Assembly: GCA_039592975.1 (NCBI GenBank)
Contig: JBCNQE010000009.1
Span: 98,762-130,761, forward strand
Direction of reading: 5' to 3'
Origin: Ralstonia sp.
GTDB taxonomy: Bacteria > Pseudomonadota > Gammaproteobacteria > Burkholderiales > Burkholderiaceae
DNA length: 32,000 nt
In this document: piece by piece, positions 18,013 through 32,000 of the stretch
Layout of the letters: the number at the start of each line of letters is the position of its first letter
How positions within the stretch are numbered: the stretch's first letter is position 1
Made by a program: the position numbers and the translations under genes
Notes under the pieces: model-generated
Seen by the model: only the letters and a program-made list of their open reading frames with translations
Database searches by the model: none
Told to the model about the DNA's origin: nothing

Positions 18013-19380
18013 ATGGAAAGCTTGCTGATCCAGCGGACGACGCGCGCGCAGTTGGTCCTGGCCAGTACCGTCGCACTGTTGATCGTCCTGACCCTGGGGC
18101 TCTGCGGGCCACGTGCCAGTCTGCCGTGGCCCACCATCCCGCCTTTCATGCCGATGTGCGCGTTGACCGTCTTTACCACGGCCGTCATCGCCGCGTTTCT
18201 GCTGGGCGCGCAGTTCACCGTGACGCGGCAGCCGATGCTGGCGGCGCTCGGCGGCGCCTATGCCTTCACGGCGCTGGCCGTTGCCCTGCAACTGCTGATG
18301 TTTCCGGGCCTGTTCTCGCCCACCGGCCTATTGGGCGCGCGGCCTACCAGTGCGGTGTGGATGTGGGTCTTCTGGCATGGCGGCTTTCCATGGTTCGTGA
18401 TCGTAGCCGTGCTGGTGCGCGAGCGGGTGTCGCAAGACGCCATTCGTGCGGGCCAGGTCTACCAATGGGCCTGGCTGCTGATTGGCGGGCCGGTGGTTGT
18501 GGGCGCGCTGCTGTGCGGCTTGGCGTTGGTGGCCAACCTGCCGCCTCCGCTGGGCGAAACTCCGGCCGGCAACCCGGTGGCCGCCGCCCTGTGGACAATC
18601 AATGTCATCGCCGTGCTGGCCGTGCTGGCCAGCGGCCGCTTGCGTGCCGTACTCGATGTCTGGCTGGCGATTGCCGCACTGGCCTGCCTGACGGACACCA
18701 CCCTGAACCTGCTCAGCCCCGATCGCTTTACCGTCGGTTGGTATGTCGCCCGCTTGTTCAGCATGTTCGCGCCCGGGGTGTTGGTCTGCGTGATGGTGTG
18801 GCAAGTCACCACGCTGTACCGGCAACTGTTCGAGGCCCACGTGTCGTTGCGGCAGACCTCCATGCACGATGCACTGACCGGCCTGTACAACCGCAGCGTC
18901 TTCAACGAGCGGATCGGCGCCCACCTGCGTGCGGCACAGCGCAGCGGGCATCCGATCTCGCTGGTGATGATGGATGTGGACCACTTCAAGCGTTACAACG
19001 ACGCCTTCGGCCACCGGCGCGGCGATGCCTGCCTTGCGGCAGTGGCCACGGCGCTGGCGAGTGTGGTGCGTCGGCCAGCGGATTTCATCGCGCGCTACGG
19101 CGGAGAAGAGTTCGTCATCGTCCTGCCGGAAACGAACGCGGATGACGCGCAGTCGCTGGCCGAACGCGCCCGCGAAGCCGTACTCCGCTTGCGCATCGAA
19201 GCCGCCGCACCATCGCGCTATGTCACTGTCAGCGCCGGCTGCGCCACGGTGGCACCGGGCGCCGAACCCATCACCACCGACGTACTCGTGGAAACCGCAG
19301 ACGCTGCCCTCTACCAAGCCAAGGCCGCCGGACGCAACCTCGTGATCAGCGCTCAGGCGATGGCCGCTGCCGTGACGTAG
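18013..19380 (+). CDS. Diguanylate cyclase: N-terminal polytopic membrane sensor domain plus GGDEF domain
   Basis: Trimmed to ATG 18013 (MESLLIQ..). About 8 TM helices are followed by a GGDEF domain with an intact active site (RYGGEEF) and an I-site RxxD (RPAD) five residues upstream. Confidence 0.9.
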   Translation: MESLLIQRTTRAQLVLASTVALLIVLTLGLCGPRASLPWPTIPPFMPMCALTVFTTAVIAAFLLGAQFTVTRQPMLAALGGAYAFTALAVALQLLMFPGLFSPTGLLGARPTSAVWMWVFWHGGFPWFVIVAVLVRERVSQDAIRAGQVYQWAWLLIGGPVVVGALLCGLALVANLPPPLGETPAGNPVAAALWTINVIAVLAVLASGRLRAVLDVWLAIAALACLTDTTLNLLSPDRFTVGWYVARLFSMFAPGVLVCVMVWQVTTLYRQLFEAHVSLRQTSMHDALTGLYNRSVFNERIGAHLRAAQRSGHPISLVMMDVDHFKRYNDAFGHRRGDACLAAVATALASVVRRPADFIARYGGEEFVIVLPETNADDAQSLAERAREAVLRLRIEAAAPSRYVTVSAGCATVAPGAEPITTDVLVETADAALYQAKAAGRNLVISAQAMAAAVT

Positions 19381-19872: not shown

Positions 19873-20121
19873 TCAGCTATTACGCCGATCGGGTGAAACC
19901 GGCTTGCCTCTGTCATATAGCTCTTGCGTGATCTCGTCACCGAACCTGAGGGCTTCGTTGTAAAGGTTGCTGTCGTGAGGAATCGGCCCAAATTCCCTTT
20001 CGCCGTAAAACTTGCGGTAGACCTTTCCCTCGGCGTGGTCCCAACGGAACATCACCTCCTCGAAGGGGTAGTCCACAAAGACGTCCGCACGCGCGAACCG
20101 CTCGCCTTTATTGATTCCCAT
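19873..20121 (-). CDS. Hypothetical small protein (82 aa)
   Basis: Third-position G+C is clearly higher downstream of ATG 20121 than in the upstream part of the ORF (counted by hand), so the short form is preferred. An ATG at 20310 with an AAGGG RBS is an alternative start. No recognisable motif. Confidence 0.45.
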   Translation of the reverse strand: MGINKGERFARADVFVDYPFEEVMFRWDHAEGKVYRKFYGEREFGPIPHDSNLYNEALRFGDEITQELYDRGKPVSPDRRNS

Positions 20122-20608: not shown

Positions 20609-22330
20609 CTAGCTGTCCGAAACAAGTGCCGCGAATTCCTTGTGCTGATTGGCGACGCTGCTCGCGTATTGCAACACTGCAATTTTGCTCGCGACCGCTT
20701 CCAGATACTTGTCTTCTGCGATGGAATTGCTGAGATCCGCCGGCGTGACAATGGTTGTCACGAAAGCAGTCAGTCCCGTAACGACCGGAAGCCATCGGGC
20801 GACCAGTTCGATGAGACTGTTATCTTTGGCCTGCGCAGCATCGGGCGAAAACGCGACTGTAAGCGGGTCGACCTTTCGGCCAATTACCGTTTCAAGCGTC
20901 TGGGCCATCAGCGCGATCAAAAACGGCTTCGAACGGAGGTTTCTGAGGAGGGCAAGCTGATTGCTTTCGACCGAAAGAATGGTCCCACTCGTGGACTTGG
21001 CTTTGAGCTGCAACCGCAGATCGTCGATTGCGCGTGCGAGCGTGTAGACGAACAGGATATGGCGAGCCTTCTTACCTTCGAAGGCATTCTGATAAAGCGG
21101 TCTGCGGTCAAATATCTGGTTCTTACCGCGCGCCGCGTCCTGCGGCCGGCCGTGGAATGCCAGCAGGGGCTGCGCCACTTCCTCTATCCCAATCTGATCA
21201 CCTTGTACTCGAAAGCCGCGCTTGCGCACGTAGTTGTGCCCGATCGTGGTGAACTCGCCTGCGATGCGGTTTTGCTCCGAATCGTTACTGTATTGGTCCC
21301 ACGTTGTGATCTCGTTCTGAGTATTGTTGTACTTGACGATGTCGCCGATAGTCTCAGGATCCGTGGACTGTATGACTCGACACAAGACTTTCACATCTTT
21401 CAGATCGTTCTTTGTTGCGTCAACGGAACCTAGCGAGCCGGTAGTCTGCGCTCCGTTGATGATCGACATGCCAGTCAGCTTTGTCTGCCCGTCTTTCGTA
21501 TCGCTCTTGCCGAGTGTTATCAGCGTGATCCCGTTATTGAAGACCCAGAAGTCCGCTGGTTTAGTTTCCGCCGTCTGGCGGATTCCAGTGTTGATCCGCT
21601 TCCTCCGGCTTATGCCGAGGAATCCCCGGTAATTCGCAGAAAACAGGTCGTCGCCGTACCTTGCATACAACTCGTGCAACCACGTGCCAGGCACCGACAT
21701 GACAGCGGCTTCCCATTTCGGTCCAGTTTCGGTGAATGCGATCTTGGCTGGACATACCAGTTCGTCTTTCACCTGAATCTGGGATTCCTGACTTGCGAAA
21801 AGGTGCTCGATGCGCGCCGCTCCCAGTTCTCGTGCCGTAACACTAACCGCCCATTCACCATCGAGCGAATTCTTGAAGTGGGCTGCGGCCGTCTGCAGTT
21901 CCTTCGCTACGTTTACTGATTCCGGATAGTTGTGCACATAGAGCAACTCAACGCTATCAACCTCTCCGTTGGCCAGCGCTTCCCGGCATTCAGTAATGGC
22001 GGCCTGCAACGACGGCGGGACCTGGCTTACATCGCCTGAAAGCAGCCATGCGCTGGCAGTGTTGAGGTCCGAAGCCTTGTTGGCGGGCGCGGCATCTTTC
22101 TTCCCCACGCCCAAATATCCTTGAGCAAACAAGATTCGACGACTATCACGGTCGATGTAAATCAGGTCGATTTTCTTGTCGTCGGGTCCGTCAGTGAGCG
22201 CCTCGGAGGCAAGCGCCTCAATATCCGGCTCTTCTAGGTACATTGCTACAACCCAGACAAGATAAGCGTTGCCTTCGCCCAAGCTGCGGATCAGATTCTC
22301 GTTTGCCTTAAATGCGTCGATATATGCCAT
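20609..22330 (-). CDS. AIPR-family abortive-infection phage-resistance protein
   Basis: AAGGAG RBS 5 nt before ATG 22330. The 573-aa product has the central motifs I associate with the AIPR family (..FWVFNNGITLITL.. and ..SIINGAQTTGSL..). Confidence 0.75.
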   Translation of the reverse strand: MAYIDAFKANENLIRSLGEGNAYLVWVVAMYLEEPDIEALASEALTDGPDDKKIDLIYIDRDSRRILFAQGYLGVGKKDAAPANKASDLNTASAWLLSGDVSQVPPSLQAAITECREALANGEVDSVELLYVHNYPESVNVAKELQTAAAHFKNSLDGEWAVSVTARELGAARIEHLFASQESQIQVKDELVCPAKIAFTETGPKWEAAVMSVPGTWLHELYARYGDDLFSANYRGFLGISRRKRINTGIRQTAETKPADFWVFNNGITLITLGKSDTKDGQTKLTGMSIINGAQTTGSLGSVDATKNDLKDVKVLCRVIQSTDPETIGDIVKYNNTQNEITTWDQYSNDSEQNRIAGEFTTIGHNYVRKRGFRVQGDQIGIEEVAQPLLAFHGRPQDAARGKNQIFDRRPLYQNAFEGKKARHILFVYTLARAIDDLRLQLKAKSTSGTILSVESNQLALLRNLRSKPFLIALMAQTLETVIGRKVDPLTVAFSPDAAQAKDNSLIELVARWLPVVTGLTAFVTTIVTPADLSNSIAEDKYLEAVASKIAVLQYASSVANQHKEFAALVSDS

Positions 22331-22528: not shown

Positions 22529-23104
22529 TCATGTCTGTCCTGTCATTTTGAGTAGAGCCATGTGTTTGGCGTGGCGTGCAAAGTTCGCATCTTGAATTGC
22601 TGTCTCACCCTCTAGCGCATGGATGTATTGAGGTGGTAGGCCGTGCTGACGGGCGCCTGCAATCACAAGCTCCTTGTACCAAGTGTATGGCTTGAGCATC
22701 GGGTCGAACGCCGTCGCGTAGTAGAGCGATGCGATCGCTGTGCCGTCCTTGAACGTAACTTCGACCTGACGCTCAGAATAGCCAGAACCCAGCCCTTCTG
22801 CCTGATCGAGCGCGGCCTTTTCCGACCGAGCCAGCTCGTACAGAACGCCATAGACAGAGTCTCCGTCGGCAGCCGCGACAACATCACACTTGCCGGACCC
22901 ATCTTTGCTCGCCTTGTGCCAGCGCAGTTGATGTCCGATGAGAACTGCTACGCCAAGAGCGCGGGCTGAACGCACTCGTTCGCAGATACGAGTCGTCAGC
23001 ATATTCGAGCCGTAGGCGAAGTAGAGTATCGAGCGCCAGGCCGCATCCGGCGTGGAGAAGGATGGATCAGGCTTCAATCTTCGTTTTTCCTTTCCTGCGT
23101 GCAT
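22529..23104 (-). CDS. Gamma-glutamylcyclotransferase (GGCT / AIG2_2 family) protein, third gene of the operon
   Basis: YFAYGSNMLTTRI, LDQAEGLGSGY (catalytic-Glu context) and the C-terminal ..YKELVIAGARQHGLPPQYIHALE.. are colinear with human GGCT (FLYFAYGSNLLTERI, LDEQEGV, GAKENGLPLEYQEKLK). The start overlaps the upstream gene by 38 nt (11 nt if TTG 23077 is used). Confidence 0.85.
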   Translation of the reverse strand: MHAGKEKRRLKPDPSFSTPDAAWRSILYFAYGSNMLTTRICERVRSARALGVAVLIGHQLRWHKASKDGSGKCDVVAAADGDSVYGVLYELARSEKAALDQAEGLGSGYSERQVEVTFKDGTAIASLYYATAFDPMLKPYTWYKELVIAGARQHGLPPQYIHALEGETAIQDANFARHAKHMALLKMTGQT

Positions 23105-23804
23105 TTGACCGCAACGCTCGTAGTTGCTGGTTCAGCTTCTTACGGTCGAACAGCTTGTACTGGACACTCTGGCTGGAATGCCGACAGGCCAGGGACAGTT
23201 CCGACGGTGTTTCACCCAGCCATGCAACGACGGCATTGACGGTCTCGCCGGTGCGAAGCCACGCCTGCGCTGCGATATCGAGAATCTCCTCTTCAAATGG
23301 CGGCACTCGCCAGACTCTGTGAATGCAGGGGAGGGAATCGTCATCCTTCGCTAGGATCTGCAAAAAGTCGCCGTGCTTGACCGCGTGATGCAGGTAGCGA
23401 AGCATTGCGTGGTCACTGTCCTCCAAGGGGTGCACGGGGAAGGTCAGTCCGAGCTTGAAACCCCGGCCTTCAGTGATGCCGATGCTACCGTGGCTGTTGG
23501 GCACCAGCATCCCCCGGTGCACCACGAAATCCCGCTGGTCGGCCAGAAACCGCATCAATGGATCCGCAGTCAGCTTCTCCCTTTCCTGCCGGTACCACTT
23601 ATTGAACCCCTTGTGATTCTGCAGACTCATTTGGAGGAGCTGCGGCACCTCCTTGATGGATTTGAGGAAGGCATTGAGGTGCCATCGGAACGGATCCGCA
23701 AAGTGGTAATACTGCTCAAGCGTGTGAATCCAGAAATGGGCTTCACGAAACCGGTCGACTGCGGATTCGATCGCGGTCAGTGGTTGGGGAGAGTGGGCTG
23801 GCAT
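23067..23804 (-). CDS. Hypothetical protein with HEPN-type Rx4H motif (245 aa), second gene of the operon
   Basis: It starts 9 nt after the upstream stop. No family recognised. Residues 91-96 (RDFVVH) match the R-x4-H HEPN RNase signature within a predicted helical N-terminal half (..EAHFWIHTLEQYYHFADPFRWHLNAFLKSIKEV..). Confidence 0.4.
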   Translation of the reverse strand: MPAHSPQPLTAIESAVDRFREAHFWIHTLEQYYHFADPFRWHLNAFLKSIKEVPQLLQMSLQNHKGFNKWYRQEREKLTADPLMRFLADQRDFVVHRGMLVPNSHGSIGITEGRGFKLGLTFPVHPLEDSDHAMLRYLHHAVKHGDFLQILAKDDDSLPCIHRVWRVPPFEEEILDIAAQAWLRTGETVNAVVAWLGETPSELSLACRHSSQSVQYKLFDRKKLNQQLRALRSNARRKGKTKIEA

Positions 23805-23813
23805 GGGGGCACT

Positions 23814-24344
23814 CTACCGCGTTGCCGGTGGCGGACAGGTAGTGACAGCGCGGTTGCGATCACGTCGTGCCTTTAGTGGTTGGCATCGACCAGAGCAGTC
23901 GCTACTGGTCTGCAGTACGCCCAAAGTAGACGGCCTGAGCACGGAGACCTTTCGTGCCCATTCCACGAGAGCAAGGGCCTCAGCGCGTTCCACTCCAGAA
24001 AATGCATCGAGCACGAATCTAGTGCGCCCGCCATAGACGCGTCGGGCGAGGTTTGGAGCCACGCTACCTAATTCTGGACCATTGGCATCCAGCAGTAGGA
24101 AGTGCTCAAACGTAACGATGTCGCCGCGACGACCTTTACCCCCTGAGCTGCGTCGAGGGCCAACACCAATCCAGGTCAGCTTCCGGGAAATACCGAACCT
24201 TTGGGGCCCAGTACCGATGCCACCGACGCCGATCACAGCGTCAAAGCGAAGGTTGCGGACGTTTCCCATGCAGTCGTTGATACCGAAGCGCCCGAAGCAA
24301 TCGGGATCGCCCGTGTGCGTTCGCTTGTAGATCAAGATGCGCAT
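23814..24344 (-). CDS. Hypothetical protein (176 aa), first gene of the operon
   Basis: GGAGG RBS 8 nt before ATG 24344. The N-terminus (MRILIYKRTHTGDPD..FDAVIGVGGIGTGP) suggests a small alpha/beta ligand-binding fold. No family recognised. Confidence 0.5.
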   Translation of the reverse strand: MRILIYKRTHTGDPDCFGRFGINDCMGNVRNLRFDAVIGVGGIGTGPQRFGISRKLTWIGVGPRRSSGGKGRRGDIVTFEHFLLLDANGPELGSVAPNLARRVYGGRTRFVLDAFSGVERAEALALVEWARKVSVLRPSTLGVLQTSSDCSGRCQPLKARRDRNRAVTTCPPPATR

Positions 24345-24577: not shown

Positions 24578-24853
24578 GAAACCGTGGCATGCCGCTCCCA
24601 TCGCCCGCAAAGCCTTACGCTACAACGAATTTGCCTCCCACGGAATGCCACGAAATGGGGTGTGGCACGCCTCCAATTCCGTGGCCTAAAAAATAGGCAA
24701 CCCCTCGAAACCGTGGCACGCCCCTTCCCTCCTTTTCTTTCTCTTTCTCTTTGATTTTTAAAGGAAAAAAGGAAAGAAGTAGGGGCGACTGGCAACATGG
24801 GCCGTGTGGCGGATCGGCGCGAAACCGTGGCATTTTGTGGCAAAACCGTGGCG
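24578..24853 (+). repeat. Iteron-like direct repeats (G/A)AAACCGTGGC(A/G) flanking a polypyrimidine/polypurine AT-rich tract
   Basis: GAAACCGTGGCA occurs at 24578, 24707 and 24821, and AAAACCGTGGCG at 24842. Shorter (C)CGTGGC / TGTGGCA cores occur at 24661, 24679, 24803 and 24836. An inverted TGCCACG is at 24646, and the inverted repeat CACGGAAT (24640) / ATTCCGTG (24676) spans it. The tract ccttccctccttttctttctctttctctttgatttttaaaggaaaaaaggaaagaag lies at 24721-24779. Confidence 0.7.
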
Positions 24854-25085
24854 CCGCTTTCGTTATAAATCAAAGAGTTAGGTGAGGGTCCACACGGAGC
24901 CACGGGTTTTTCAGTTTGCGTGTGTCCGGGTGTCCGTCGCGCTCCCTCGGGCGGCGACCCTCGGAGACGCTAAGAGCAGGTCTGAACAACATTCAATTGT
25001 CATCCGCCCGGTGCTACCCCAAAGTGTCGGCCGCCGTTCTTACTGGACGGCAATGACTTTGGCGCTACGGAGATGGAGGTCGATA

Positions 25086-25622
25086 TTGCGAGCTTGCGCA
25101 GTTCTGGGCGATAGGACGACGACGGGAGGCACGGTAATCACCGCCGGCGCAGGCTCGTTCATGACTATCGATGGCAAGCCCGCTGCGCTCTGGGGCGACA
25201 TTGCTACGTGCCCTGCATGCAAATCAACCGGGAAAATCACCGGCGAAACCTTCCCCATCCAGACCGTCAACGGTGTTCCGGTAGCTCGGCACTACGACCT
25301 CGTGTTGTGCAAGTGTCCGAAGAAGCCGCGGCTGATAGCTCCGGGAGTGAATATGGTGGCGGATGAGGTCCATGGCACGGGCGGGACGGGAAACGTCAGC
25401 GACGCTGCGGAGGTGATGGCGTTTGCCACGCATGCATTCGACCAGCGCGCGCAGCTGCTTGATGCGGAAACGCAGCAGCCCCTTGCTGGCAAGCGCTACC
25501 GTATAACGTGGTCGGGTGGAACCATCGAAGGCATCACGAGCGCGTCCGGGCATACGATGGCCGTTCGCAGCGACCAGGCGGAGACTGCAGAGATTCATGT
25601 TCTGACGGATGAACAAGCATGA
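25086..25622 (+). CDS. PAAR-domain protein with C-terminal transthyretin-like (TTR) extension (T6SS spike tip/adaptor)
   Basis: TTG 25086 lies 6 nt after GGAGGT; an in-frame ATG at 25053 is the alternative start. The N-terminus (..LGDRTTTGGTVITAG..) and two PAAR-type repeats (IDGKPAALWGD, VNGVPVARHYD) are present, with a Cys cluster (CPACKSTG, CKCP). The C-terminus (..FDQRAQLLDAETQQPLAGKRYRITWSGGTIEGITSASGHT..) resembles the TTR extensions of PAAR proteins. Confidence 0.8.
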   Translation: MRACAVLGDRTTTGGTVITAGAGSFMTIDGKPAALWGDIATCPACKSTGKITGETFPIQTVNGVPVARHYDLVLCKCPKKPRLIAPGVNMVADEVHGTGGTGNVSDAAEVMAFATHAFDQRAQLLDAETQQPLAGKRYRITWSGGTIEGITSASGHTMAVRSDQAETAEIHVLTDEQA

Positions 25623-26311
25623 GTGGCATACATTCCGCTCAACTCCCTCTAACACCAGTCGACGACCGTAACACCATCAAGGTCCACGTCCCGTCAAAGC
25701 TGCTCTACTTCTCTATCTACTACTACACGGCTGACAACGCTTTCAAGCGAGCCTCGCAGACCAAAGAGCGAGAGATAAAGCGCCGTTCGGATTGGAATCC
25801 TGCACAGGATACCTTTGTGGCCACTGAGGTGCGCACCGAGGCGGACTTCCGTGCCGCCTGGGCTCGCATGATGAAATTGGCTAAGGACGGGGGTTACGTT
25901 GTTGCAGAGGGGCACTTGTTCACCCACGCCAGCAAGCCCAAAGGTGGCCGTGGTGGACTCGAGTTCGCTGCTATCCCTGGCACCGGCGACGGCACCATTA
26001 CGCGGGAGGAGGTGTCACAGTTGGACAGGCTTCCCTGGCGCAAAGGCGGCTCGCTGGTGCTCTACGGTTGCAATACAGGGAGGACCGGTGAAGGCCGCAG
26101 CTGGACACCAGCACAAGCATTCGCGGACGCTCAAGGTGTGCAGACGACCGGCACGACGGGGTACGCGTACTTCTCCAAGTCACGCGACAAACACGTCAAA
26201 ATTTCCGATGACTCGACCGAGGTGTACCTGCATCCCTACAAGTGGGGCAAGAACGGGTACTTCGGCGACGGAGAGGCGATGCCAGACCAAACCTTTACAC
26301 CAGCGAAATGA
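25619..26311 (+). CDS. Putative T6SS cargo effector, unknown family (230 aa; possible His/Cys-dyad alpha/beta fold)
   Basis: Its ATG overlaps the PAAR stop (ATGA at 25619-25622). Alternating beta/alpha pattern with ..VVAEGHLFTHAS.. and ..GSLVLYGCNTGRTG.., reminiscent of the His..Cys arrangement of caspase/CHAT/DUF4347-type folds. No confident family assignment. Confidence 0.4.
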   Translation: MSGIHSAQLPLTPVDDRNTIKVHVPSKLLYFSIYYYTADNAFKRASQTKEREIKRRSDWNPAQDTFVATEVRTEADFRAAWARMMKLAKDGGYVVAEGHLFTHASKPKGGRGGLEFAAIPGTGDGTITREEVSQLDRLPWRKGGSLVLYGCNTGRTGEGRSWTPAQAFADAQGVQTTGTTGYAYFSKSRDKHVKISDDSTEVYLHPYKWGKNGYFGDGEAMPDQTFTPAK

Positions 26312-26604
26312 GAAACAAGCTCTTGGTTTTGATTGCCGCTGCGCCGGCGCTGCTGTCCATCATGTACGTGCTGTATCGCGCCGCCTTCGCGAGCGTGAAT
26401 CACGTTGGGCTGACGCCGCATTTCCTGGACATCTTCTCCGTAGTGTCCGTGCTTTTGGCGCTGACGTTCCGGCTCGAGCGTAAGTGGCTCTGGACGGTCG
26501 TCCTGGTAGCGACCGTGAACGTGCTGCTGGTGGTGTGGGCGATTGAGACCAACGTACTCGTCGAATACGAAGAGTGGATTCGACGTGGAATGCCGGAGCG
26601 GTAG
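26308..26604 (+). CDS. Small three-TM membrane protein (98 aa), putative cognate immunity protein
   Basis: Its ATG overlaps the upstream stop (ATGA at 26308-26311). It has three hydrophobic helices and occupies the last position of the PAAR operon, directly followed by a strong terminator. Confidence 0.5.
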   Translation: MRNKLLVLIAAAPALLSIMYVLYRAAFASVNHVGLTPHFLDIFSVVSVLLALTFRLERKWLWTVVLVATVNVLLVVWAIETNVLVEYEEWIRRGMPER

Positions 26605-26749: not shown

Positions 26750-29548
26750 CTACCGTGGTATGCCATGTTCCGATGGCGCCGGCGAGGCGTAGAGACCGAG
26801 CTTTTCGAGCTTGGCCAGGCTCAGCGCCGTCATGTGCCCATGGCGCCGGTTGAAGATCCGCTTCTCCACGTCCTCCATCGCCTTGCCACCCTGCACTGCC
26901 ACCACGCCGGACTGCAGGAGCTGCTGCTTGAACACCCGCGCCGTCTTGATCGGCAGCGCATCGAACTTGGGTCGCAGGTGCGGCGCCGTAGATAGGTGGT
27001 CCATCACGTGGCTCGGCCGCAGGAACAGCGCCATCTCGCGGCCGCTGTCGGTCTGGATCGTGTCCCAGCAGTGCGGATACTGGTAGCGGCCGGCATCGAG
27101 CTCCGACAGCAGGATTTCCATGATCCACACCCACGGCAAGCGCGTGCCGTTGGTCTCGGCGATGTGCGCGTTCATTTCGGTCAGCAGGTCATCGACAAAC
27201 GCGCCCTGGTCGACGTCGAGCTCGGCGAACTCGCACAGCAGCGCCCAGGCCGTCATGATGGCGGCGTAGTTCTCCATCATGCGCCTAGCGGTGGCGTCGC
27301 TCGCTTCGGCGCGGCTGTGTTTCTGGCACATATCCAGGAACGCTGCATGCAAATCGCGGATGCGTGCCGGGTCGAGCTGCGCGACGAACTGCATCCACTC
27401 CCACACGGGGAATTGCGGCAGGCTGTGCGGGATGATGGAGCCTTGCTTCGCCACCGACAGCGACGTGCGGCAAATCTTCGACTGCAGGCTCTCCACGTCC
27501 ACCTCTTCGCCGGCCAGCAGCACAGGCGCGCACATCAGGTACGGCGTGAGGGCCGCACCGACGCGGGTGAACTCGAAACGGTAGGTCGACTGCAGCAGGC
27601 CGTCGATGTCGGACAGCACCATCTTTGGCAGCTTGGAGAACTCATCCCAGCCAACCGGATGCGAGGTCCACGATACCGACGCGCGCCGGCGGTGGTCGGT
27701 CTTGAGCATCTGGCCTGACAGCACCTGAAACGCTAACGTGGTCTGCAGGCTCTCCAGGAGCTTCGATTTACCTGATCCCTTCTCCGCCTGCATCTGCAGG
27801 TGTGGGTAGAACCCGAGCACCGTTTTCAAGTGGGCGCCAAGGCCCCAAGCAAGCGCGATCGCGGCCGCGTTGTTACGGAAGGTGGCTTGATAGGCCGCGA
27901 TGACGGCGCGGGCGTTCTGCCGGCTGCCGCGCGGGAAGGTCATGTTGTAGTACAAGCACTGCTTATGCGGCTCCAGGAAGTAGCAGTCGCTGCCCTCCAT
28001 TGCTGCGAGCTCGCCATCCCGCCAAGCCACGCCCACGAAGTTCACCACGTCACGCGCTCCCAGCTCGGCGGCGCGCTCCAGGACGTTCACCATGCGCGCG
28101 AACTGCCCCGGCATCCAGATGTGGCCGAACTTGCCGCGCCACCACTCCAGGTTGTAGAGCTTGTCGTTGCCCACCACTTCCCGCTGCAGCGTGGCACCGT
28201 GGCGCGGCACCTGGGCGCTGATCCCGAACACGGTTTCGGGCTGGTTGTCGGGCGTGCCGTTGATGGTGGCTAGGTGGCTCTGGATGCGCAAGCGTGAGAA
28301 GCCGGCCACGCGGAACGAGCACAGATCGCCGAGCTCTTCGCTGCGGCTCATCTCTCCGTCGTCGCCATCGTGATCCTTGTACTTCTGCACGTAGTGGGTG
28401 AAGTCTTCCTTCACACGGAAGCGCCAGTAGATGCTGAAGTCGTGCAACGGCAGAAAGATGCGGCGCGTGCCCTCCAGGCGTTTGCCGCCACCCGGCATGC
28501 CGGGAATCAGCCACGGCTCTAGGCGCTTCATGCGTGCTGTGAGTTCGTCGACGCCCTGGGCCTTGAGCACATCGTTGATGTCCTCGCCCTCTTCCCAATC
28601 CTGCATGTCGACCAGCATCGAGCCGATGTCGGCGGCCGTCAGCACTTCGGACAACTTCCACGCGGCGGCCAGGCCGGCACGCTGGCCGGTTCGCTCGTTC
28701 ACCGCATCGGTGTGGTCCAGGGCGATCAGCACGCGCTTGCCGCGCAGGAAAGTCCAGTCGATCTTGTCGACGTTGGCCGTGCCGCGAATGGCGAAGGCCG
28801 CGAAGCCGTTCGGCAGGTGGCAGCACTCCACCGACAGTGCGTTGATCGGGCTCTCGACGATGTAGACCGTCTGTGCGCGTTGCAGCCGGCGCGCGTCGCT
28901 GGTCCAGCCGTGGCCGAGCTTTTCGCCCTGGCACTGCGTCTTGACGTTGCCATTGAGCGCAGCGTCGGCGTAGCGCAGGTCTACGGCGACGACGGACGCC
29001 GAGTCCGCTGCACGCACGATGAATGCGGCAGCCGGCCCGCCGTGGCCTGGCTCGCCGGTGGGCACTTTGTTGCTGCTCCAGGTGTTCCAGCCGAGCGCCC
29101 CGGTTTGGATGGCACGCCGGCTGACGGTCTCGTCAATACCGCGACCGGCGAGATAGGCTACTGCAGGCTCTGGGTTCGCCCTGCAGCGCTCAGCGATGTA
29201 ATCCTCGGTGCTCTTGCGTGCCGGCAGGCCTGTCGCCGCGACGGCCGGCATCGGGATGCCGTACCACTGGCCGAGCAGCTTTGCCGCATCCAGCGGTGTT
29301 GCCACTTCCGGCATGCAGTGGCGCACCAAGTCGATGCAGGAACCGCCCACGTCTTGCGACCAGTCTTTCCATGCGCGCCCCTGATCAAAGATCGACAGCG
29401 ACGGGCTGCTGTCCGTGTGATGCGGGCTGTGATAGTTGCCCTTGGCACCACTGCGCTTGAGGTCCAAACGCTCGGCTAGGTCGTGTAGGTCGATGTCGCG
29501 CTTGAGCTGGTCGTACCAGGAGCGCATAGCCGGATTGCCATTCATCAT
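26750..29548 (-). CDS. P4 alpha-like bifunctional primase / helicase (N-terminal primase-type region, Toprim, P-loop NTPase)
   Basis: GGAGG lies 7 nt before ATGATG (29548/29545), which overlaps the upstream gene's TGA. Toprim-like motifs are present (VYIVESPINALS, VLIALDHTDAVN). So are Walker A (AEKGSGKSKLLESL) and a degenerate zinc-ribbon-like N-terminus (YHSPHHTDSSPSLSIF..GGSCIDLV). The 932-aa size is typical of satellite/island primase-helicases. Confidence 0.8.
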   Translation of the reverse strand: MMNGNPAMRSWYDQLKRDIDLHDLAERLDLKRSGAKGNYHSPHHTDSSPSLSIFDQGRAWKDWSQDVGGSCIDLVRHCMPEVATPLDAAKLLGQWYGIPMPAVAATGLPARKSTEDYIAERCRANPEPAVAYLAGRGIDETVSRRAIQTGALGWNTWSSNKVPTGEPGHGGPAAAFIVRAADSASVVAVDLRYADAALNGNVKTQCQGEKLGHGWTSDARRLQRAQTVYIVESPINALSVECCHLPNGFAAFAIRGTANVDKIDWTFLRGKRVLIALDHTDAVNERTGQRAGLAAAWKLSEVLTAADIGSMLVDMQDWEEGEDINDVLKAQGVDELTARMKRLEPWLIPGMPGGGKRLEGTRRIFLPLHDFSIYWRFRVKEDFTHYVQKYKDHDGDDGEMSRSEELGDLCSFRVAGFSRLRIQSHLATINGTPDNQPETVFGISAQVPRHGATLQREVVGNDKLYNLEWWRGKFGHIWMPGQFARMVNVLERAAELGARDVVNFVGVAWRDGELAAMEGSDCYFLEPHKQCLYYNMTFPRGSRQNARAVIAAYQATFRNNAAAIALAWGLGAHLKTVLGFYPHLQMQAEKGSGKSKLLESLQTTLAFQVLSGQMLKTDHRRRASVSWTSHPVGWDEFSKLPKMVLSDIDGLLQSTYRFEFTRVGAALTPYLMCAPVLLAGEEVDVESLQSKICRTSLSVAKQGSIIPHSLPQFPVWEWMQFVAQLDPARIRDLHAAFLDMCQKHSRAEASDATARRMMENYAAIMTAWALLCEFAELDVDQGAFVDDLLTEMNAHIAETNGTRLPWVWIMEILLSELDAGRYQYPHCWDTIQTDSGREMALFLRPSHVMDHLSTAPHLRPKFDALPIKTARVFKQQLLQSGVVAVQGGKAMEDVEKRIFNRRHGHMTALSLAKLEKLGLYASPAPSEHGIPR

Positions 29549-29997
29549 GCGCCGGCCTCCGGATACATACCTTTGCCGAGCACCGTACCCATCAACCAGC
29601 GTGCGACCGTCATCAACGCGCGGTCGTTCTGGTACAGCGCATCGGCGCTGTCGCACGTATAGCCACCATCGGTGTCCATCGTGACGACCATGACGCCTTC
29701 CACGTCGCCGTGGAGCACGCGCTCGCGCTTCTGCTGCAAAAGCTCCAGTGACGCGCGGCATGCAGGTTCGGATGGCGCGTGCTCTACCAGACGCAGCACC
29801 GGTGCTGGCTGACGAACCGAAGCAGCTACCGGCGCGAGTGCTGCAGCGTGACATGCAATGTCGGTCAGCGCGGCACCGAGAATGTCCATCGACTCGCGGT
29901 CGCTGGGAGCATGCACAGCGGCACGTAGTGCAGTGAGAGCACGGCTACGAATGTCGGGAGAGGAAACGAGCTCAGGGCGAGCGAGGGCGTTAGGCAT
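29545..29997 (-). CDS. Hypothetical protein (150 aa), translationally coupled to the primase gene
   Basis: AGGAGG lies 5 nt before ATG 29997, and the stop overlaps the primase start codon. No recognised motif. Confidence 0.6.
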   Translation of the reverse strand: MPNALARPELVSSPDIRSRALTALRAAVHAPSDRESMDILGAALTDIACHAAALAPVAASVRQPAPVLRLVEHAPSEPACRASLELLQQKRERVLHGDVEGVMVVTMDTDGGYTCDSADALYQNDRALMTVARWLMGTVLGKGMYPEAGA

Positions 29998-30331: not shown

Positions 30332-30565
30332 TTAGAGAACGGCCGGCGCGGCTTGCGTCGAAGTAGGCGCGCTGAGTTGCCGGGTAACCAGTGGATCAGG
30401 CGTATTGCTGGGCGAGATCGTGCGCACAGCTTCCAGCAGGCTCACGAACGTATGACCGCAATGGAGGTTCGTGCACTGGCAATGCAGTTCACGCGTGACA
30501 CGGCTGACGGGGCGGCTGGAGCGGATGTTTGCAACGCTCTCGCAATGCGGGCAGGTGACTCTCAT
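30332..30565 (-). CDS. Ogr/Delta-family zinc-finger transcriptional activator
   Basis: MRVTCPHCES..(22 aa)..CTNLHCGHTF has exact C-x2-C-x22-C-x4-C spacing, and the motif ..IRSSR..ELHCQCTNLHCGHTF is like P2 Ogr (..ARTSRYI..RYHQCQNVNCSATF). Confidence 0.8.
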   Translation of the reverse strand: MRVTCPHCESVANIRSSRPVSRVTRELHCQCTNLHCGHTFVSLLEAVRTISPSNTPDPLVTRQLSAPTSTQAAPAVL

Positions 30566-30616
30566 GGTGTCGGCTCGATTCAGAGAGGACAGGCCGGCGA
30601 CATGCCGGCCTGTGTC

Positions 30617-30844
30617 CTAGCAGTCGGTCAGGATGGCGGGCGTCGTTGCTTTCAGCCCGGCTTGCTTGCCGTAGGTGCGCGTGGGGCGTGCCGGCTGTTG
30701 CCGCAACTGCGGCACGCGCGAGAACACCGTGCCGCAACTGTGCCCATTGCACCGATAAAGCGTCTCCTGTTTGCCGTCTGAGCGGGTCACGGTGCCTTGC
30801 GGTGCAGTCATGGCATGGCAGGCAGGGCAATGTTCGATGGTCAT
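30617..30844 (-). CDS. Second small zinc-finger protein with Ogr/Delta-type cysteine spacing
   Basis: AAGGAA RBS 7 nt before ATG 30844. HCPACH..(22 aa)..CNGHSCGTVF has the same C-x2-C-x22-C-x4-C spacing (C6, C9, C32, C37). Confidence 0.6.
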   Translation of the reverse strand: MTIEHCPACHAMTAPQGTVTRSDGKQETLYRCNGHSCGTVFSRVPQLRQQPARPTRTYGKQAGLKATTPAILTDC

Positions 30845-31621: not shown

Positions 31622-31882
31622 TCAGAGTTGACGGGCTGCGATACGGCTGGCCATCCATTCGTGGATCTCGGATGCGAGCCACGCGACGCTCTTGCCGGTG
31701 AGTGGCACGGGCTTGGGGAAGTCGCCACGGCGCACGCCGTCATAGATGGACGATGTGGGCAAGCCGCACGTGGCGCTCACTTCCGGCAGCCGCATGAAGC
31801 GCTCGGACAACATGCCCGCCGTGCCGTGTATGGCTGCTGTGGCGGCTCGCGTGTTGGGCGCCTCGATGTGCGAACGGATCAT
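31622..31882 (-). CDS. alpA: AlpA-family (prophage CP4-57-type) HTH transcriptional regulator / excisionase-like protein
   Basis: ..RFMRLPEVSATCGLPTSSIYDGVRRGDFPKPVPLTGKSVAWLASEIHEWM.. is the canonical AlpA/MerR-type HTH. The start is chosen at ATG 31882 (GAGGA 6 nt upstream); ATG 31813 or 31795 are alternatives. Confidence 0.85.
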   Translation of the reverse strand: MIRSHIEAPNTRAATAAIHGTAGMLSERFMRLPEVSATCGLPTSSIYDGVRRGDFPKPVPLTGKSVAWLASEIHEWMASRIAARQL

Positions 31883-32000
31883 TTGCGTTCCTCGTCGATG
31901 GGTTGAAATCGAGCGCAATTGCTCGGCGTTGCTCGGTACTGCTCGGAGCCTTGCCAGTCTCGTTAGCCGCGCGGCTTGGGGCAATGCGAGGGTGTTGTGG

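Follow-up and report, generated by a model that had tools for sequence, protein, structure and literature searches.

Positions 22529–24344 of the 32,000-nucleotide stretch of Ralstonia sp. DNA analyzed here (contig JBCNQE010000009.1; the whole stretch is referred to as the window) hold three tightly packed genes, A, B and C, which encode, respectively, a member of a protein family that has no annotation, a relative of the phage lambda protein Ea47 and an enzyme with the gamma-glutamylcyclotransferase (GGCT) fold. We conclude that these genes probably constitute a young, lineage-restricted cargo operon of independently working accessory genes, carried by a P4-like satellite or integrative element in its variable region. 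This cassette would have arisen through a single assembly event in Burkholderiales, which joined three accessory genes usually found apart, and would have moved as a block since then, with each of A, B and C most likely acting alone. The three genes are probably defence-related, and the cassette is plausible as defence cargo. An earlier note, made from the nucleotide sequence alone, had proposed instead that A, B and C are the components of a single, novel anti-phage system.

Organization and history of the cassette

Homologues of A, B and C each number hundreds to thousands, yet they do not co-localise in the way expected of a three-component system. The neighbourhoods (±6 kb) of A homologues were inspected in 80 genome loci from many phyla and in four viral contigs, and neither B nor C was found in any of the 84. 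Among non-redundant loci seeded with B, A was detected in two of the 39 that extend at least 600 nt upstream, one of these holding merely the remnant of a deleted A, and a GGCT gene was present in none of the 25 that extend at least 600 nt downstream. In the contexts seeded with C, A and B appeared only in the cassette clade. Elsewhere A and B are overwhelmingly solo genes, and the partners of C are other genes altogether. This comparison does not support the proposal of a three-component system, for which the earlier note had itself named a lack of co-localisation as refuting evidence.

The cassette lies on the reverse strand and comprises the following features:

23814..24344 (-), gene A, 176 aa
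24353..24357 (-), GGAGG Shine-Dalgarno sequence of gene A, read directly, 8 nt ahead of the ATG
23067..23804 (-), gene B, 245 aa, lambda-Ea47-like (PF26900)
22529..23077 (-), gene C, GGCT-fold enzyme, 182 aa from the most likely start, TTG 23077

Reading of the open reading frames (ORFs) bore out the layout given in the earlier note, with all three genes on one strand, tight packing, the ribosome-binding site of A and a 9-nt gap between the stop codon of A and the start of B. For gene C, two starts had been offered, ATG 23104 (191 aa, overlapping B by 38 nt) and TTG 23077 (182 aa, overlapping B by 11 nt). The latter is most likely the correct one, because the Shine-Dalgarno sequence AGGAAAGGA lies 10 nt upstream, because an independent gene call on an identical contig picked the same start, and because in L142 the intact orthologue has its ATG start at the aligned position (L numbers denote the homologous loci that were compared and P numbers denote database proteins). 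Pairwise ratios of nonsynonymous to synonymous substitution rates (dN/dS) between cassette copies are 0.16–0.28 for A, 0.07–0.14 for B and 0.22 for C; all three are therefore real genes under purifying selection. The three products were scanned against Pfam, PADLOC-DB v2, NCBIfam and PHROG. None of them matched a PADLOC model at E values up to 1 or any NCBIfam model, in agreement with the earlier claim that no described defence system has such a composition. The literature that we searched contains no paper describing the A-B-C composition or a GGCT in an anti-phage system, and the GGCT, Nmad3, DUF4391, DUF6119 and Ea47 families are not among the entries in the text and supplements of DefensePredictor.

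The trio was found only in close relatives, whose B proteins are 83–85% identical and which occupy three unrelated contexts. Approximately 1.85 kb, from A through C, aligns with L141 and with L142/L150 at 79–81% identity, and the flanks are unrelated. In L141 the cassette is part of an integrase-AlpA element near BrxL. In the other two loci (L142:4425-10277, L150:1694-7546) it follows a PD-T4-6-like Ser/Thr kinase, a UvrD helicase and an uncharacterised gene for a 468-aa protein, lies on the same strand 37 nt downstream of this operon and is found near HigB and BrnTA; here it probably has no promoter of its own. The C ORF is intact in L142. The cassette copies of A are monophyletic, as are those of B, and both clades are small and have solo genes as their sisters (Paraburkholderia L005 and L006 in the case of A; L085, L088 and L143 in that of B). 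Such single clades with solo sisters point, therefore, to an assembly that took place once and recently. The closest solo A genes (68–72% identity) are as similar to the A of the window as the cassette copies are.

Decay of the cassette is also seen. In a relic (L139:8794-9738), A carries an internal deletion that removed cassette nucleotides 210–602 and kept both ends, C is absent, and B is intact (86% identity, dN/dS of about 0.1). The C gene of L141 has a 1-nt frameshift just ahead of the catalytic motif. The three genes are accordingly not retained or lost together. A separate, more divergent A lies beside a truncated B in L136.

These data bear directly on the reading of A, B and C as one anti-phage system, new and restricted to a single Burkholderiales lineage, in which A would be the sensor and B (as a HEPN RNase) and/or C (as a GGCT) would be the effectors. 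Such a system would account for the translational coupling on a shared strand, for the conservation and mobility of a block whose genes are all under purifying selection, for the second A-B pair in L136, and for a composition that matches no known system. It would also fit the company that the cassette always keeps, which consists of defence or toxin-antitoxin (TA) genes: AIPR in the window, BrxL in L141, and the PD-T4-6-like kinase, HigB and BrnTA in L142/L150. The persistence of the coupled block over synonymous divergence (dS) of approximately 0.7–1.2 and through several relocations leaves some probability to cooperation of the gene products. However, co-occurrence is absent outside the young clade, B has stayed intact and constrained in L139 even though A and C were lost, the C of L141 carries a frameshift, and the solo A genes are no more distant than the cassette copies. 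Furthermore, Nmad3 is the sole fusion or adjacency partner of A, and nothing was found in favour of the sensor role that had been assigned to this protein. We therefore consider a single A-B-C system unlikely. Tight packing of genes in a hotspot operon is not sufficient to define them as a system; in this case, it was conservation of the neighbourhood that distinguished a composite cassette of recent origin from a genuine system of several components.

Gene B and the Ea47 family

Within the explanation by independent cargo genes, B is the one most likely to be a conflict or defence effector that works alone. It is the best candidate for an autonomous effector because it occurs as a solo gene, is associated with defence islands, is strongly constrained and was kept when A and C were lost. 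A nuclease or RNase-type activity may be exerted through its invariant R91/D92/H96 cluster. This cluster (R91-D92-x3-H96; RDFVVH, residues 91–96) belongs to a helical N-terminal half, which is followed by an alpha/beta region with the invariant residues C160, C207 and H209. In an alignment of 36 B homologues, R91 and H96 are invariant and D92 is nearly so, which agrees with the conservation of RDFVVH on which the earlier note had made its case depend; about 40 further positions, including C160, C207 and H209, are invariant as well.

The earlier statement that B matches no family is outdated, since B carries a precomputed PF26900 (Phage_lambda_Ea47) tag, assigned to the identical protein P0001 and to 120 of the 120 homologues listed. 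Alignment of B with lambda Ea47 by hhalign gave a probability of 82% (E 1e-5) over only 77 columns, with B residues 31–107 placed on Ea47 residues 22–99. Our scans of B against Pfam (E up to 1), PADLOC, NCBIfam and PHROG yielded no informative match, and no match was obtained with the B profile among PDB sequences or by tblastn among 50,697 phage records. A Foldseek search of BFVD returned one borderline match, carrying no name, and a single viral locus with B was found in IMG/VR. Both B and lambda Ea47 are uncharacterised accessory genes of mobile elements. According to the literature searched, which offers nothing useful on Ea47 function, the lambda gene is non-essential. The two proteins differ in that Ea47 has 410 aa and B 245 aa, with some 77 residues aligning, and no tblastn or Foldseek match joins them directly. 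In addition, lambda Ea47 (L138:1687-2919(-)) has SRNTIEK where B has QRDFVVH. The histidine is thus replaced by lysine, so any catalytic role of that histidine would not be common to the namesake of the family. Should the cassette or its parts prove protective, the Ea47 family, uncharacterised since lambda was sequenced, would gain its first function.

HEPN domains are four-helix bundles with an Rx4-6H motif, in which a polar residue follows the arginine, and often with an upstream Ex3[KR] motif (Anantharaman et al. 2013, PMC3710099). In common with HEPN RNase toxins of the Abi, MNT-HEPN and Cas13 types, B contains a helical domain in which R-[polar]-x3-H is invariant, and it is located in defence or TA islands. 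In contrast to them, it carries the motif not at the start of a long fourth helix but in a short one: its AlphaFold model (pLDDT 92) consists of three long helices, the short helix with the motif, which is of lower confidence, and then the alpha/beta region. B also lacks an evident Ex3[KR], has many more invariant residues and includes the extra alpha/beta domain. No HEPN profile was matched, either in Pfam (E up to 1) or in the profile search of PDB sequences, and in the Foldseek search of the PDB small MNT-HEPN toxins recur at probabilities of 0.15–0.35 and E values above 1, which is not significant. From the earlier description of B as a HEPN protein, the R-x4-H motif has stood up to comparison within the close family; with no HEPN profile, Foldseek probabilities of at most 0.35 and lysine in lambda Ea47, the assignment itself is tentative.

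The same features could suggest that A and B form a TA-like addiction pair, with B as a HEPN-type toxin, the upstream gene A as its antitoxin and C as a passenger. The small size and upstream position of A, the 9-nt gap, the R-x4-H motif, the weak Foldseek likeness of the N-terminal half of B to MNT-HEPN toxins and the abundance of TA genes near B are all consistent with such a pair. Nevertheless, B nearly always occurs without A and is intact in L139 after the deletion of A, while A has neither an MNT domain nor any known antitoxin fold and is widespread without B. An addiction pair is for these reasons very unlikely, and a classical TA pair was rejected, as B survives without A.

The 106 neighbours of B include integrases, transposases, AbiEii, DarT, PIN, Fic and Hypoth_Ymh proteins. 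About 13 of them match PADLOC models (AbiEii, HerA, DrmD, DarT, PD-Lambda-3, SoFic, Vsr, mad8 and several PDCs), a defence share well above the expectation for random genes as judged without a matched background. Solo B genes are found beside SIR2 and a transposase (L004), beside Fic (L002), next to an integrase/RecD2 element (L139) and next to the riboflavin operon (L143). A soil metagenome lineage has, close to B, a gene for a 229-aa protein that matched nothing in Pfam (L116:2185-2871(-), also L111–L114); its RNFVVHGSW segment (R-N-x3-H) is reminiscent of RDFVVHRGM in B, and hidden Markov model searches gave no significant relation between the two proteins.

Genes C and A and their partners elsewhere

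Gene C appears to encode a catalytically competent enzyme that cleaves gamma-glutamyl amides. The product scored above the gathering thresholds of two Pfam families, AIG2_2 (56.3 bits, E 4e-15; cut-off 27 bits) and GGACT (38.5 bits, E 2e-9; cut-off 22.8 bits), and aligned with human GGCT (2PN7, E 3e-16) at the YGSN loop and the catalytic glutamate, which is E94 in the 182-aa numbering and E103 in the 191-aa numbering. These two elements are invariant in 18 members of the C family. Pfam and the 2PN7 alignment thus agree with the earlier identification of C as a GGCT of the human type that retains its catalytic residues. The fold signature, the substrate-binding YGSN loop and the catalytic glutamate are shared with human GGCT, whose fold relatives are GGACT, ChaC and BtrG; unlike the human enzyme, C is a member of a bacterial subfamily whose genes frequently lie within defence or mobile loci. 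C also matches PHROG 2520, a GGCT classed as moron or auxiliary metabolic gene.

The C family has more than 1,600 proteins of approximately 171–180 aa, and several of its members are parts of restriction-modification (R-M) or other defence loci. In Brucella anthropi (L152:3067-8497), a GGCT gene is located between the type III genes Mod (PADLOC E 4e-212) and Res (E = 0), preceded by an SNF2 helicase and DUF4391, and its start and stop overlap both flanking genes. In L161:3320-10270, and likewise in L162–L164, the GGCT follows DUF4391 and Mod and precedes RhuM and Res, with an SF1 helicase in the locus and AbiEi/AbiEii adjoining. These two helicase-DUF4391-Mod-Res loci, L152 and L161, are unrelated. 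A Rhizobium plasmid island that also holds Shedu, TIR, AAA ATPase, UvrD and DUF3800 genes has a C-type GGCT 16 nt after a DUF6119 gene (L155:5144-7546). Proteins of 402 and 505 aa (L153:6302-7510; L154:6017-7534), one of them encoded near Shedu, contain the GGCT as their C-terminal domain, joined to a helical N-domain and a zinc ribbon that have no Pfam match. Another C relative stands alone between a Tn7-like transposon and DndB/C, and one is in an ordinary chromosomal context. The N-domains of the fused GGCTs, DUF6119 and the upstream partners in L002, L141 and L150 are unrelated to A or B. The literature searched contains no paper that connects GGCT to anti-phage defence and offers nothing useful on DUF4391 or DUF6119.

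Based on these neighbourhoods, C may be an active gamma-glutamyl amide-cleaving add-on, from a subfamily that is repeatedly carried in defence loci with changing partners, and its target is more likely a gamma-glutamyl-linked small molecule or modification than bulk glutathione. A stronger version would make the whole cassette a functional anti-phage module whose chemistry would be new to bacterial immunity, with the C-type GGCT as a recurrent defence accessory or effector that cooperates with an Nmad3-linked A and an Ea47-like nuclease B. The target of C in such a module would be gamma-glutamyl-linked, for example glutathione, a signal with this linkage, or a hypermodification of the glutamyl type on the DNA or nucleotides of the phage. 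A defence class of C-type GGCTs would explain the insertion between type III Mod and Res and the placement after DUF6119; we nonetheless regard a cooperating module as doubtful and retain the explanation by independent genes. If the cassette or its parts are protective, the GGCT subfamily seated in R-M and defence loci would bring gamma-glutamyl chemistry into bacterial immunity.

An exhaustive profile search assigned 632 clusters (at 50% identity) to the A family, which is spread over very diverse phyla, has no annotation and consists almost entirely of stand-alone proteins of 110–230 aa. Its invariant motifs are YKRTHxGDP, FGxxxCxG and AVIGVGG. The protein has a compact alpha/beta core (residues 1–135), followed by a disordered, basic, cysteine-containing tail. 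A had no match in Pfam, PADLOC, NCBIfam or PHROG and none among PDB sequences in a profile search, and Foldseek gave nothing significant in the PDB, the best match being the Lon N-terminal domain at an E value of about 1. Four viral contigs with A were found in IMG/VR.

Nmad3 (PF18754) is the only recurrent family among the 149 nearest neighbours of A. An Nmad3 gene directly adjoins A in seven of the 80 genome loci (for example, L080:298-1577), and two database proteins (P0288 and P0328) are Nmad3-A fusions; the remaining neighbours are scattered and frequently housekeeping genes. From this adjacency and fusion we therefore infer a link of A to nucleotide-modification chemistry. On this view A would be a small, enzyme-like domain, truly paired only with Nmad3 if it is paired at all, and its chemistry would concern nucleotide or nucleic-acid modification. 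Nmad3, rather than B or C, is the only functional link of A for which there is evidence, and the window differs from the Nmad3 gene pairs in that it lacks Nmad3 and has A joined to B and C instead. The literature searched offers nothing useful on Nmad3 function. Protection by the cassette or its parts would give a role to this widespread, unannotated, Nmad3-linked domain. The GGCT genes in type III R-M and defence loci, the A-Nmad3 fusions and the association of the Ea47 family with defence islands are new leads, drawn from limited sampling.

The host element and its other cargo

The cassette lies in a lower-GC cargo region between a primase gene and the junction with the host chromosome. The G+C content is 0.55–0.60 over 20–27 kb, compared to 0.62–0.69 in the flanks, and chromosomal host genes (TetR, an MFS transporter and a MASE4-GGDEF cyclase) extend to position 19380. 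The G+C profile and the scans confirmed the location previously described, namely low-G+C mobile-element cargo beside an Abi-type (AIPR) gene. The other features of the element are:

19873..20121 (-), Tis1 immunity-protein homologue, orphan, at the host-proximal edge of the island
20609..22330 (-), AIPR or AbiU-like gene downstream of the cassette, PADLOC match AbiU/MzaE
24579..24852 (-), four exact GCCACGGTTT repeats, within the 537 nt that separate A from the PAAR gene
24882..25622 (+), PAAR-motif protein, divergent from the cassette, PHROG 5348 (E 1e-38)
25619..26311 (+), gene for a 230-aa protein with no assigned family, overlapping the PAAR gene by 4 nt
26750..29854 (-), primase/helicase of 1034 aa with Toprim and CHC2 zinc finger, phrog_5629
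30332..30565 (-), Ogr/Delta-type zinc-finger activator
31622..31984 (-), AlpA/Vis-type regulator

The designation of this element as a P4-like satellite, taken over from the earlier note, appears reasonable as a provisional one, because the primase (phrog_5629), the Ogr/Delta zinc finger and AlpA are present; no virion or structural genes were detected between the host junction and 32 kb. On the other hand, the closest relatives of the primase belong to P2-like phages of Burkholderia and Ralstonia (about 50% identity to KS5, KL3 and Mana), P4 itself was not among the primase matches, and no integrase, att sites, cos site or psu/sid-type capsid-redirecting genes were seen in the window, past the end of which the element continues.

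P4-like satellites and P2-like prophages reportedly have hotspots of variable defence and cargo genes. The region studied here resembles them in its variable, lower-GC cargo within an element that has a primase, an Ogr/Delta activator and AlpA, in the presence of an Abi-type gene (AIPR) and other conflict genes, and in cargo that differs among related elements. The cassette itself, unlike the contents of those hotspots, matches no described hotspot system and no PADLOC model. Variable defence or cargo cassettes in satellite hotspots are well known as a kind, whereas the content of this one is uncharacterised. The AIPR/AbiU-like gene, separated from C by a 198-nt gap, is missing from the other cassette copies and is an independent neighbour.

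Given this setting, the cassette could alternatively serve the mobile element through counter-defence, exploitation of a helper phage or a metabolic 'moron' function; for example, C might remodel gamma-glutamyl metabolites and B might act like the non-essential phage accessory lambda Ea47. The name-giving gene of the B family, the match of C to PHROG 2520, the C relative in an ordinary chromosomal context and the position of the cassette as satellite cargo beside a PAAR protein of the type VI secretion system (T6SS) type and the Tis1 immunity protein would all fit such a function. However, A and B are rare in viral contigs (four loci and one locus, respectively, in IMG/VR), the tblastn search with B among phage records was blank, the neighbours of B on bacterial chromosomes are enriched in defence and TA genes, and relatives of C are found inside R-M operons, not in phage genomes. 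A service to the element is thus quite unlikely, and defence cargo of independently working genes continues to be the explanation that we prefer.

The GCCACGGTTT repeats have an extended form of about TGCCACGGTTTC and are accompanied by one copy with a single mismatch (window positions 24579–24908). There is no other exact copy in the 32 kb, and the observed count was reached in none of 100 shuffles; the other cassette copies are without this repeat region. The repeats could act as iterons for the adjacent primase, similar to P4 ori/crr, or as operators for the divergent promoters. At approximately 24720–24750, upstream of A, there is a tract rich in A and G.

Next to the Ogr/Delta gene, a second zinc-finger ORF of the form CxxC...CxxxxC (75 aa, 30617-30844(-)) has no Pfam match, and the tandem arrangement at 30332–30844 resembles the duplicated Ogr-like structure of P4 delta. 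PAAR and Tis1 are T6SS-type effector/immunity genes riding on a satellite-like element. A T6SS reading of the locus was rejected, as the PAAR module is encoded on the other strand and appears self-contained; the PAAR gene and the 230-aa gene form a separate cargo module. This pair is followed by a small ORF resembling a membrane protein (26242–26604).

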